A stretch of DNA of 64,000 nt from an uncultured Candidatus Saccharibacteria bacterium (GTDB lineage: Bacteria; Patescibacteriota; Andersenbacteria; UBA10190): positions 18,283-82,282 of the forward strand of contig CAZSUC010000002.1 in assembly GCA_964610055.1 (NCBI GenBank). Direction: 5' to 3'. Positions 2,820 through 42,821 of the stretch are shown here, one piece after another. A program made the translations under genes and the position numbers. The notes beneath the pieces are model-generated. The model had not been told where the DNA came from, searched no databases, and saw nothing but the letters and a program-made list of their open reading frames with translations. The first letter of the stretch is position 1. Each line of letters starts with the position of its first letter.

Positions 2820-2825
2820 TTATGT

Positions 2826-2854
2826 AAAAAAATAGTCCCCGCAGGGGCGGGGAC
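2826..2854 (-). terminator. rho-independent terminator (GTCCCCGC-AGGG-GCGGGGAC plus U-run on minus strand)
   Basis: perfect 8-bp GC stem, 4-nt loop, followed on the minus strand by TATTTTTTT; 28 nt downstream of the 2882..3256 gene. Confidence 0.7.
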
Positions 2855-2881
2855 AAAAAGGTGCAGGTGTTTGTGGCCGTG

Positions 2882-3256
2882 TTAGACGGCGAGGTCTTCG
2901 CGGCAATTGGCCACGACAGACAAGAACCGGCCGGTTGCGTAGAAATTGTCGAGAAGAATCGTGTTTTGCCTGGTGGTCCAGTTGATGGCGATCTGACCGT
3001 TGGATAATTTTTCCAGGGAGACATTTGTATCTTCGGCGTGGCCGGTTTGATCGAGTTGAGCAAGAAGCTTGCGCCAGTCGTCCAAACTAATCTCGAGGCC
3101 AACATTGGTGAGGGTCATGCCGTCTTCCATGACGCAGTCTTCGCAGAACGCAACACGATTGTTGCGGGCGGCCACGTAGTTTCGGCCGTAGACAAGAGGA
3201 TGCTCAGCAATAAGATGATCATCGCAATTGACTGGTTGAAGAGGCGCTGTGGACAT
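2882..3256 (-). CDS. hypothetical Cys-containing protein (CDDH and CEDC motifs) in a GC-rich segment
   Basis: 124-aa ORF, SD GGAG 7 nt before ATG, strong terminator downstream, local GC ~52% versus ~43% window average. Confidence 0.5.
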   Translation of the reverse strand: MSTAPLQPVNCDDHLIAEHPLVYGRNYVAARNNRVAFCEDCVMEDGMTLTNVGLEISLDDWRKLLAQLDQTGHAEDTNVSLEKLSNGQIAINWTTRQNTILLDNFYATGRFLSVVANCREDLAV

Positions 3257-3378
3257 GATCCGGCTCCTGCAAAAAAGGTACTGATGGCCTGAAATCCAAA
3301 ATCAGGCTGAATATTACTTTAAGACAAATGTTATTTTTGTCAATAGATAGATTAAATTAAAGATGTTAAAATTATAAT

Positions 3379-21267: not shown

Positions 21268-21834
21268 TTATTCGGTCGTAGTTTCAGTATCTTGATCGGT
21301 AGGTGGAGTACGGTCTCCGTTAGGACCACCTGGTCCGTGAGGACCGTTAGATCCTGGCCCGCCAGGACCGCCACCAGGGCCAAACGGCAAGAATTCTTCA
21401 GGAATACCGTTATCCGCTGCCCATTGCTTTAGTTCGTCCATGTGTGCAGTCATAGTTGCTTCGCGTTCTTCATCTGACATGTCTTGAAAAGAATCGCGGG
21501 ACTCTTGGAGTTCTTTTTGTTTCGCAATGATTTTATCGGCTTGTTCTTGAGTTAATGTGCCATCAGAGACAGCTTGGGTGAGACGATCCTCAAAATTTTG
21601 ATGTTGAGGACGTTCTGTGTCTTGAGGACGATGTTCATCAAAAACTTGTTGAACATCGTCAGCGCTGAGGCCAAATTTATCGGCGATTGCAGTAACAAGC
21701 TCAGACATTGGGTTGGGCCGATCGCTTTCTTCTTCATCGGCGAAAGCGGTTTGAGCGGTCTGCAAGCCAATGATGGTCGTGAGCCCGAGAGCAAGCATAG
21801 TGCCGGCTACGAGCATGGATTTGTTTGGCTTCAT
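21268..21834 (-). CDS. secreted protein with LTQEQADKI-type helical repeats and Gly/Pro-rich tail (DUF2680/YckD-like?)
   Basis: signal peptide, acidic helical region, C-terminal GPGGGPGGPGSNGPHGPGGPNG low-complexity tail. Confidence 0.5.
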   Translation of the reverse strand: MKPNKSMLVAGTMLALGLTTIIGLQTAQTAFADEEESDRPNPMSELVTAIADKFGLSADDVQQVFDEHRPQDTERPQHQNFEDRLTQAVSDGTLTQEQADKIIAKQKELQESRDSFQDMSDEEREATMTAHMDELKQWAADNGIPEEFLPFGPGGGPGGPGSNGPHGPGGPNGDRTPPTDQDTETTTE

Positions 21835-41040: not shown

Positions 41041-41055
41041 AATTGTCAATTAGTT

Positions 41056-41085
41056 TTGACATTATTTAGGATGACGGAGCATAAT
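41056..41085 (+). promoter_or_regulatory. near-consensus sigma70 promoter TTGACA-N18-CATAAT
   Basis: consensus -35 and 5/6 -10 immediately downstream of mscS stop, at the start of the GC-rich cassette. Confidence 0.5.
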
Positions 41086-41200
41086 GGAAAAGTTGTGTTC
41101 GTTTACCAATTTTATGTTGCTTTAACCTGGAACCAAGGAAGAAAGGAGGGGCATGTTCCAGTAGGAGGTTTTTCCGTCTGTCTAGCAAAGGAGTCACGAG

Positions 41201-41488
41201 ATGGCAGTGGCGGAAGTTCCGAAGGAGAAAACGGCACGCGAATGCAGTTTTGCTCTGGCTAGGGAGGGGCTCAAGAAACTGAAAGCATCGTTGTCGGATT
41301 TGCCTCGTCTGCGGCAGCGCTACGCGTGTTTCTGTCCAGGTTGTCAGGGGACCCTACTGGGTTCCTATGAAAAGGCCGTGATTGTTGAAGGGGACGAAGG
41401 GCCGAGTCTGCGGCGGCTTGGGCATGAAGGCCAGTCTAAGTGCTTGCCGCTTACCCGAAAGAATTTGTTGGCTGCCTTGAGGGGGTAG
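41201..41488 (+). CDS. hypothetical small protein with CFCPGC motif (GC-rich cassette ORF A)
   Basis: 95 aa; SD AAGGAG 7 nt upstream of ATG; GC-rich codon usage unlike neighbours; no recognised family. Confidence 0.45.
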   Translation: MAVAEVPKEKTARECSFALAREGLKKLKASLSDLPRLRQRYACFCPGCQGTLLGSYEKAVIVEGDEGPSLRRLGHEGQSKCLPLTRKNLLAALRG

Positions 41489-41561
41489 AATAGTACGGAA
41501 GCGGAGAAGAGGCCTGATTATTCCATTTCTTTCTTGGTCTTGGTTTTCATGGGAGGAATCC

Positions 41562-41960
41562 ATGTCACGCGGTCTTGAAGAGATGATGCGTACTTTGGAA
41601 GACGTTGCGCAGATGATGGCTCGAGTGACTAGGCGGCCGCCTGGGTTTTGTCGGGATCAGCTGCTGGCAACTTGCGACGGGATCTCTGGTAAACAGCTGC
41701 ATGACTGTTTGATGGTGGTGATGCGTCTCAACAGGCGTCTGTTCTTCGTTTCGTCGATTCAGGACATGCGGCGAGCGCAACAGGTTGGCGCTCTGATCTG
41801 TCGGTGGGGGGGCTTGGATGTGAAGACATTCTTGCGTCAGGTTGTCGAACATCCGGAGTACATGGCTGCGGTGATTGAGCTTCCTTCTTTGAGGAAGGTG
41901 AACAAGCGGCCTTGCAGAAAGAAGAGGTCGGCGAAGGGTGCACCAATGAGGATGCACTGA
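41562..41960 (+). CDS. hypothetical basic protein (GC-rich cassette ORF B)
   Basis: 132 aa; SD GGAGGAA 5 nt upstream of ATG; helical, Arg/Lys-rich C-terminus; antisense ORF is low-complexity His/Pro, so plus strand favoured. Confidence 0.45.
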   Translation: MSRGLEEMMRTLEDVAQMMARVTRRPPGFCRDQLLATCDGISGKQLHDCLMVVMRLNRRLFFVSSIQDMRRAQQVGALICRWGGLDVKTFLRQVVEHPEYMAAVIELPSLRKVNKRPCRKKRSAKGAPMRMH

Positions 41961-41994
41961 TCATCGTGCTGGTGGTGAACACAAGCAATACAAC

Positions 41995-42026
41995 GGGTGT
42001 ACTACGGTATGCCCGCTTTTTCTTTT
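41995..42026 (+). terminator. rho-independent terminator GGGUGUAC-UACG-GUAUGCCC + GCUUUUUCUUUU
   Basis: 8-bp stem (two G-U pairs), tetraloop, long U-tract; 35 nt after ORF B stop, 13 nt before lgt ATG. Confidence 0.55.
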
Positions 42027-42038
42027 ACAATAATAAGG

Positions 42039-42821
42039 ATGATTAATTTCTTACCAAGTCGAGAAGTGTTTGTGCATATCGGAATGTTCGATATTCGGTG
42101 GTACGGAGTGATGTATGTCGTTGCGTTTGGACTGACCGCCATCATGTTATTTAGATTACAAAAATGGCGTGGTTTAAATGAAGATAAATGGTTTTGGTGG
42201 GAAGTAGCGGCATGGTTGGCGGCCGGAGCAATGATAGGAGGGAGATTAGGCTATATGTTGATCTATGATGGGGCGGATTTTTGGAGAAATCCAATAACGG
42301 TTTTATGGATTCAAAATGGTGGGATGTCATCTCATGGTGGAGTGATAGGAGTAGGACTGGCGTTATTGGCTGTGCAACGATGGTTGAAACCGAAAAGTTT
42401 ATGGAAAATAGCTGATTTGATTGTGGTACCAGCAGCGATTGGATTGGCTTTAGGGAGATATGGAAATTTTATTAACCAAGAACTTTACGGCACAATAACG
42501 AAATTGCCGTGGGGGATAGGTATACCAGGGGTGAATGGTTTGCGTCATCCGTGGCCGATATATGAAGCAATCTGGTTGTTATGTTTGGCGATAATTGGGA
42601 TGAGAGGATTGCGCAAAGTTAAGATTGAAGGAGTGGTGGTGGCGTGGTTTTTAATTGAATATGGAGCGGGTCGTTTGTTTTTGGAGATATGGCGGGAACC
42701 GGAGTGGGATTTAGTGTACGGATTAACACCGGGGCAGTGGTGGTCGATAGCGGTAATAATAGGTGGAATGTGGTTATGGGTGAATCGAGCAAAAACGATG
42801 CCTAAGAGTAATTCGCGTTAA
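42039..42821 (+). CDS. lgt: prolipoprotein diacylglyceryl transferase
   Basis: FDIRWYGVMY N-terminal motif and GRYGNFINQELYG Lgt signature; start set to ATG 42039 downstream of the terminator (longer GTG 41997 ORF would span it). Confidence 0.85.
   Translation: MINFLPSREVFVHIGMFDIRWYGVMYVVAFGLTAIMLFRLQKWRGLNEDKWFWWEVAAWLAAGAMIGGRLGYMLIYDGADFWRNPITVLWIQNGGMSSHGGVIGVGLALLAVQRWLKPKSLWKIADLIVVPAAIGLALGRYGNFINQELYGTITKLPWGIGIPGVNGLRHPWPIYEAIWLLCLAIIGMRGLRKVKIEGVVVAWFLIEYGAGRLFLEIWREPEWDLVYGLTPGQWWSIAVIIGGMWLWVNRAKTMPKSNSR

Follow-up and report, generated by a model that had tools for sequence, protein, structure and literature searches.

We analysed a stretch of DNA of 64,000 nucleotides (nt), here called the window, from an uncultured Candidatus Saccharibacteria bacterium (contig CAZSUC010000002.1, positions 18,283 to 82,282), in which a GC-rich segment with two small open reading frames (ORFs) lies between mscS and lgt. 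The flanking genes are ppsA, an EamA transporter gene, mscS, lgt and a UvrD/PD-(D/E)XK helicase gene. An earlier examination of this DNA, hereafter the original prediction, had described the segment as a self-contained expression unit that was inserted by horizontal acquisition. The first part of this description agreed with our analysis. A promoter, two translated-looking cistrons with Shine-Dalgarno sites and a terminator were all in place (Table 1), and the GC-rich character of the segment was reproduced by binning. We refer to the unit from promoter to terminator as the cassette.

Table 1. Features of the cassette. Coordinates are positions in the window.
Feature	Position	Strand	Basis
Sigma-70-type promoter, TTGACA-18-CATAAT	41056-41085	+	consensus scan, 11/12 positions
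5′ leader, about 109 nt, GC 0.40	41092-41200	+	
ORF1 Shine-Dalgarno site, AAAGGAGT (= AAAGGAGU; includes AAAGGAG)	41187-41194	+	read from sequence
ORF1, 95 amino acids (aa), isoelectric point (pI) 9.5	41201-41488	+	listed ORF
Inter-cistronic spacer, 73 nt	41489-41561	+	
ORF2 Shine-Dalgarno site, GGGAGGAA (= GGGAGGAAU; includes GGGAGG)	41551-41558	+	read from sequence
ORF2, 132 aa, pI 10.6	41562-41960	+	listed ORF
Intrinsic terminator, 9-base-pair stem CGGGUGUAC/GUAUGCCCG, then U-run	41994-42025 (hairpin 41994-42015)	+	scan

The GC content in 300-nt bins was 0.52-0.55 across about 41100-42000, compared with 0.35-0.49 on both sides. When 600-nt bins were used, the highest value in the whole window was found at 41201-41800 (0.545), and the runner-up bin reached 0.49. 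The rise is limited to the two ORFs, with 0.566 in ORF1 and 0.549 in ORF2 (0.432 in the whole window). The leader, the inter-cistronic spacer (0.44) and the 3′ untranslated region (0.44) have normal values. Transcription of the cassette is predicted to start near 41092. The terminator hairpin folds with -14.4 kcal/mol (z = -3.35), and the start of lgt at 42039 lies 13 nt past its T-run.

Homologous units in related genomes

Among the Lgt homologues with a source name, nearly all came from Peregrinibacteria or Peribacteria and one from Andersenbacteria; the nearest was 56% identical. We place the host of the window in the Peregrinibacteria. We compared the window with the contigs of its closest Lgt relatives, L005/L006 and L004 (Lgt 52-56% identical). 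L005 and L006 are identical over the cassette. Their gene order is ppsA, mscS, a 104-aa ORF, a 154-aa ORF and lgt, and the order in L004 includes a 145-aa ORF, lgt, a helicase gene and dsbA in succession. The interval between mscS and lgt, for which the original prediction had proposed a comparison with relatives, was not empty: a homologous unit was present in L005/L006 and in L004. It is occupied in every known genome that shares the mscS-lgt or lgt-helicase synteny, namely these same loci. As the unit is at the same site in synteny-sharing lineages, its insertion was not recent. More distant Peregrinibacteria have lgt elsewhere, beside tsaD, RNase HII or glycosyltransferase genes. Six other Lgt relatives (P0005, P0010, P0014, P0015, P0017 and P0021) had another gene context or a truncated contig and are therefore uninformative on an empty site; the contig of one relative ends 25 nt upstream of lgt. 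A contig scan with Lgt retrieved only a distant Mycoplasmatota locus.

The expression signals were shared as well. The L005 counterpart of the promoter is TTGACA-16-GATAAT (11/12 positions), and the leader, in which the window and L005 share 75% identity, is better conserved than the ORFs. From the ORF1 stop to the ORF2 start there are 73 nt in the window and 72 and 67 nt in the relatives. Locus alignments showed conserved Shine-Dalgarno sites ahead of both ORFs. Hairpin terminators with a U-run occur in all three loci, with changed bases in their stems (z = -5.1 in L005 and -3.8 in L004).

We then turn to the ORFs themselves. In BLASTP comparisons of ORF2 between L004 and L005, frame +1 gave E = 5.7e-15, while the remaining tested frame pairs gave E ≥ 0.04 (E = 0.81 for frames -1/-1). 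The identity by codon position was 0.45/0.54/0.28 in this pair, and 0.63/0.74/0.31 in lgt, which was used as a control. Synonymous sites and third positions are saturated between the lineages in both cassette ORF2 and lgt. A profile made from the L004 and L005 ORF2 sequences ranked window ORF2 first among the 618 segments obtained by translating the window in six frames (E = 8e-4; next, E = 1). With L005 ORF1 as the query, window ORF1 was also the best of the 618 segments (E = 0.076; next, 0.52). Window ORF1 and its L005 counterpart are 28% identical, and their similarity was seen in the sense frame only (BLASTP, E = 0.005). Identity among cassette ORFs is 23-31%, compared with 62% for MscS and 52-56% for Lgt. 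The restriction of similarity to the sense frame, together with the coding-type pattern by codon position, indicates that the ORFs are protein-coding rather than parts of a structured RNA. We conclude that both ORFs are probably translated. The evidence for this is strong in ORF2 and less so in ORF1, for which two sequences were compared.

Two independent top matches at positionally equivalent ORFs and the shared architecture make orthology of the units in the three loci, as it appears, the only reasonable reading. On the whole, the segment is probably an independently transcribed bicistronic operon that has long resided in the mscS-lgt interval of a small clade of Peregrinibacteria, within the candidate phyla radiation (CPR), and that would encode two fast-evolving, lineage-specific, cytoplasmic small proteins.

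The downstream boundary of the cassette is formed by the -10 box of lgt, TACAAT (42026-42031), which is not part of the cassette and lies 7 nt ahead of the ATG at 42039. The start of lgt had been called at ATG 42009 by gene callers and at GTG 41997 in the ORF list, both of which are inside the terminator hairpin. The start common to the three lineages is the ATGATT at 42039; when the protein is read from there, its match to Pfam LGT sets in at residue 10. The -35 element of lgt is poor in the window. In L005, the promoter-like site is TGCACA-16-TACAAT, ending 6 nt before the ATG (3013-3049), and in L004 it is TCCACA-17-TATAAT, also ending 6 nt before the ATG (592-629). These positions suggest that the lgt mRNA may be leaderless or nearly so, starting just past the cassette terminator. 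The original prediction held that the cassette displaces the native lgt promoter. This was not supported: each of the three loci has a -10 box 6-7 nt ahead of the lgt ATG, and both relatives have full promoter-like sites.

Cassette proteins and transcript elements

Neither protein had been recognised in the original prediction, and we likewise found no family for either in sequence, profile or PDB searches. ORF2 retrieved only itself from a word-indexed library of 5.8e9 proteins and from a full phmmer search of 1.84e9 representatives, and the three-sequence ORF2 profile recovered only the three known members. When all five cassette proteins of the compared loci were searched against Pfam, PHROG, PADLOC and NCBIfam, only noise was obtained. 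The PDB sequence profiles had no match for the cassette proteins, and no clear fold match was obtained either; a winged-helix or helix-turn-helix DNA-binding protein was among the candidates considered for ORF2. Metagenome scans with the leader DNA pattern and with the ORF2 alignment found nothing. No relative of the cassette was revealed by tblastn against phages, blastn against plasmids or scans of viral contigs.

ORF1 has a Cys cluster of the form C-x-C-x2-C (CFCPGC), and its C15, C43, C48 and H75 are kept in the 104-aa counterpart of L005. The conserved Cys and His residues are compatible with metal binding. The AlphaFold2 (AF2) model of ORF2 has an alpha-alpha-(alpha)-beta-hairpin-alpha-alpha core, which is followed by a disordered basic C-terminal tail ending in His. 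The predicted local distance difference test (pLDDT) score was 54 for window ORF2 and 61 for L004 ORF2, and the topology was the same in both models. By-eye inspection of the two proteins gave no obvious signal peptide or hydrophobic membrane segment. On our best guess at a function, ORF1 would bind metal through its Cys cluster and His, ORF2 would fold into a small alpha/beta domain that carries a basic tail, and the two would act together as a nucleic-acid-binding regulatory pair whose translation is gated. We consider this conceivable but rather unlikely.

In the leader of the window, CUGGAAC (41127-41133) pairs with GUUCCAG (41155-41161), and the corresponding hairpin of L005 is formed by CUAGGG and CCCUAG. 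The loop is a purine tract, GAAGAAAGGAG (41138-41148), which is invariant between the window and L005 and has no repeats elsewhere in the window beyond chance. Located 3′ of the hairpin is a UUUCC motif (41171-41175), conserved in L005 and followed by the ORF1 Shine-Dalgarno site. The consensus hairpin of the two sequences has 9 pairs, with one compensatory and three one-sided changes. The folding z-scores of the leader, +1.2 and +0.2, are unremarkable. A regulatory role of the leader may be supposed from these features. A mini-ORF in the leader (ATG-TTC-CAG-TAG, 41153-41164), which begins 4 nt past the GGAGG tract, was considered as a leader peptide and rejected; there is no start codon at the equivalent place in L005, and it is probably not conserved.

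A hairpin (41525-41559) is predicted in the inter-cistronic spacer, with the pyrimidine tract AUUUCUUUC base-paired to GGGAGGAAU, the Shine-Dalgarno site of ORF2. When the spacers of the window and of L005 were each folded to minimum free energy, UUUCUUU sequestered this site in both. By pairing with the Shine-Dalgarno sites, pyrimidine tracts would gate the translation of ORF2 and perhaps that of ORF1; we offer this as a tentative model, with somewhat more doubt than confidence. Between ORF1 and ORF2 of L005, we also observed a terminator-like hairpin of 14 pairs with a T-run (2437-2471), the window counterpart of which is weak. It may be an internal attenuator.

Base composition and codon usage

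The original prediction had noted that codon usage in the cassette is G/C-ending and unlike that of every neighbouring gene. The first point agrees with the GC content at third codon positions (GC3), which is 0.60 in ORF1 and 0.64 in ORF2, versus 0.27-0.47 in nearly every other long ORF of the window; stated more exactly, codons ending in A are avoided. The second point is true locally, but one other ORF of the window (2882-3256, minus strand) is alike. The shift in codon usage of the window cassette is significant (binomial p = 1.7e-12, against 5100 reference codons). The frequency of A at third codon positions (A3) is 0.12 in the window cassette versus 0.32 (0.16 in ORF1 and 0.10 in ORF2), and the codons TTA, GGA and GTA are absent. 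The dinucleotide UpA is depleted too, with relative abundances (rho_TA) of 0.52 in ORF1 and 0.20 in ORF2. The lowest 400-nt rho_TA bins of the window sit in the cassette, at 0.20 versus a mean of 0.82 (standard deviation 0.14).

The same departure was found in the relatives. The five cassette ORFs have GC contents of 0.55-0.57 and GC3 of 0.60-0.73, as against 0.39-0.52 in the flanks. In L005, the cassette ORFs have GC 0.55 and GC3 0.65 (flanks 0.39), and in L004 the cassette ORF has GC 0.566 and GC3 0.73 (flanks 0.52). A3 in the cassette ORFs of the three lineages is 0.06-0.16, compared with 0.27-0.35 in the flanks, and rho_TA is 0.13-0.54 in the five cassette ORFs, compared with 0.65-1.15 in nine flanking genes. 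UpA is depleted in all codon phases. At codon junctions the observed/expected ratio is 0.49 versus 0.93 (P = 0.003). Since the depletion extends across codon junctions, it is not merely a matter of codon or amino-acid choice.

We also considered codon bias related to expression level. An enolase-like ORF and a probable EF-P ORF, both recognised by their N-terminal sequences without a search, have GC3 of 0.34-0.38, the lowest in the window. The bias of the cassette therefore does not look expression-linked, and this explanation was rejected. As the anomaly has been kept in three lineages despite saturated third positions, it must be maintained rather than left over from a recent transfer; a foreign signature that evolved neutrally would by this time have been ameliorated. 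Judging from the aligned loci, the composition is apparently kept up by selection, or by a local bias, acting on nucleotides or on RNA. The depletion of UpA and A3 might serve mRNA stability or endoribonuclease resistance, which is our leading idea, although we regard it as possible but doubtful. We give little credence to two further suggestions. The mRNA of the operon may have adapted so as to evade an endoribonuclease directed at UA or A, possibly one encoded by the operon, the host or a phage, and the orphan proteins would then stay expressed during bulk mRNA decay; the ORF at 2882-3256 would belong to the same nuclease-resistant class of transcripts. Alternatively, the transcript might be an RNA of dual function, with synonymous sites constrained by its structure.

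Other parts of the window are also unusual in composition. A second self-contained, GC-rich orphan unit lies at 2825-3345 on the minus strand. Its elements are a promoter of the TTGACA type, a Shine-Dalgarno site (GCAGGAG), the 124-aa ORF mentioned above (2882-3256) and a strong terminator (GUCCCCGCCCCUGCGGGGAC plus U7). This ORF (GC 0.525, GC3 0.62, A3 0.13, rho_TA 0.38) is the sole other sustained stretch with GC above 0.51, and the sole other long ORF with GC3 above 0.52, in the window. Searches of Pfam, PHROG, PADLOC and NCBIfam gave no match for it; it has no viral relatives, and its cluster is a singleton. UpA is also low at 21268-21834 on the minus strand (rho_TA 0.33-0.44 in 400-nt bins), where a 188-aa ORF has a signal-peptide-like N-terminus, a GC content of 0.49 and a GC content at first codon positions (GC1) of 0.66. 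The whole window is very strongly asymmetric between strands: the plus strand has 27.8% G versus 15.4% C, the frequency of C at third codon positions (C3) is just 0.07 in plus-strand genes, and GC skew is positive (0.14-0.19) even through blocks of minus-strand genes. A similar strand disparity has been reported in some Microgenomates genomes (PMC7143001).

Alternative explanations and known systems

Several observations weigh against the reading of the segment as a long-resident operon of two small proteins. Only three lineages carrying the cassette are known. The pairwise E values of window ORF1 and ORF2 against their L005 counterparts are only 0.005 each, and window ORF2 had no BLASTP match to L004, so that the homology of the window ORFs to the relatives is partly based on position and architecture. 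The pI of the cassette proteins is not conserved and varies between 5.7 and 10.6. The pyrimidine tract of the spacer is common to the window and L005 and absent in L004, and the folds of leader and spacer are no more stable than those of shuffled sequences. Selection for extra mRNA structure was inconsistent among the lineages (z from -0.2 to -3.1) and was rejected.

A recent foreign origin, in which a GC-rich cassette with the composition of its donor was inserted between mscS and lgt, would be in line with a composition and codon usage sharply unlike those of the host and with the orphan status of the proteins. It is also in line with the distant Peregrinibacteria, which have lgt in other contexts and no cassette; an ancient gain by the ancestor of the clade is therefore possible. 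We consider the recent insertion improbable, however. A homologous cassette is at the same site in every known synteny-sharing relative, its proteins have diverged further than those of the genes beside it, and the GC-rich anomaly has been kept in three lineages whose third positions are saturated. There are no direct repeats other than short chance ones, no integrase, tRNA or mobile-element genes nearby (ARAGORN found no tRNA over the window), and no phage, plasmid or viral-contig relatives, and no donor was found. Thus, the horizontally acquired insertion of the original prediction was not upheld. The original prediction had named a toxin-antitoxin, regulator or immunity module as candidates, which we regard as guesses. 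Another explanation is a type II toxin-antitoxin-like module, or a similar addiction or defence module, in which one product neutralises the other and UpA depletion shields the module's own mRNA from a ribonuclease toxin. The two small adjacent genes (95 and 132 aa) on one promoter are fast-evolving orphans, as this would have it, and UpA depletion would suit the avoidance of a UA-cleaving nuclease. Toxin-antitoxin genes, however, usually overlap or abut, whereas the spacer of about 70 nt and the separate Shine-Dalgarno site show that this gene pair is not tightly coupled. In addition, no toxin, antitoxin or defence profile matched in Pfam, PADLOC or NCBIfam, there is no conserved pattern of acidic antitoxin and basic toxin, and the synteny beside housekeeping genes has been stable over deep divergence. 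It seems to us that such a module has a small chance of being the right explanation.

A GC-rich island between a promoter and a terminator in an AT-rich genome is a classic signature of a large structured RNA, and the ORFs might then be accidental. The leader is better conserved than the ORFs, the plus strand folds at z = -2.7 (minus strand, +0.1), and the L005 ORFs have more structure than their synonymous shuffles (z about -3). The other ORFs had no excess structure in the same comparison (z = -1.05 and -0.19 for the window ORFs and -0.39 for L004 ORF2). Rfam gave no match over the window at gathering thresholds, and in the region at E ≤ 10 only two chance matches to snoRNA models. Moreover, similarity is frame-specific at the protein level with coding-type substitutions, GC enrichment ends exactly at the ORF borders, and Shine-Dalgarno sites are conserved before both ORFs. 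A non-coding RNA is thus very unlikely here. Even less credible, to the point of being nearly negligible, is that the real gene is an in-register antisense ORF mirroring ORF2. The antisense frame is open across ORF2 in all three loci (minus strand; 41565-41957 in the window, 86-523 in L004 and 2116-2961 in L005), and in L005 it covers both ORFs with 281 aa. The frame is open because TTA, CTA and TCA codons are absent, which follows from the depletion of A3 and UpA. Its translation is not conserved (E = 0.81 between L004 and L005, compared with 5.7e-15 in the sense frame), and every expression signal (promoter, Shine-Dalgarno sites, terminator) belongs to the plus strand. The antisense gene was rejected on the lack of conserved translation.

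If, as we prefer to read it, the cassette consists of two orphan protein genes that were retained vertically, then a GC island in an AT-richer genome need be neither foreign DNA nor an RNA gene, even where it is bounded by a promoter and a terminator. The cassette would be a natural example of why horizontal transfer should not be dated by base composition. It also hints at selection on nucleotides or RNA, seen as avoidance of UpA and A3, in specific genes of this CPR bacterium. Should the genes prove to be a regulatory or ribonuclease-related pair, two new small-protein families would be defined. What is new here is limited to two undescribed protein families of three members each and the conserved depletion of UpA and A3; otherwise, this is an ordinary orphan operon within an orphan-rich phylum.

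The cassette can be compared with several known systems. It resembles ameliorating horizontally transferred islets in its atypical GC content and codon usage relative to the host. Unlike them, its anomaly is shared by orthologues with saturated synonymous sites, which is the opposite of what amelioration predicts. With type II toxin-antitoxin modules it has in common two small co-transcribed genes (about 100 and 130 aa) and a patchy taxonomic spread, but it differs in having no family homology, a spacer of about 70 nt with predicted separate gating of translation, a stable chromosomal synteny and no mobile context. The GC-rich non-coding RNAs of the OLE, GOLLD, ROOL and HEARO type are similar as GC islands of about 0.9 kilobases with a promoter and an intrinsic terminator. 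In contrast to these, the cassette has no Rfam match, and its GC rise is confined to two frames with frame-specific protein conservation.

At the RNA level, the spacer recalls fourU and ROSE-type thermometers and anti-Shine-Dalgarno leaders, as several G-U and A-U pairs are predicted between UUUCUUU and the GGAGG of ORF2. In the cassette leader, as in anti-Shine-Dalgarno leaders, a UUUCC tract and the Shine-Dalgarno site proper are accompanied by a purine tract that resembles such a site. The spacer departs from fourU and ROSE elements in that the pairing comes from minimum-free-energy predictions in two of three lineages, is no more stable than in shuffled sequences and has no match to an Rfam family. 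The lineage-specific orphan small-protein operons of CPR (Patescibacteria) are alike in their domainless, fast-evolving ORFs of narrow clades among housekeeping genes. Compared with typical operons of this kind, the cassette is set apart by its full set of conserved expression signals, by a leader that is more conserved than the coding sequence, and by a lineage-wide A3 and UpA signature that departs from the host.

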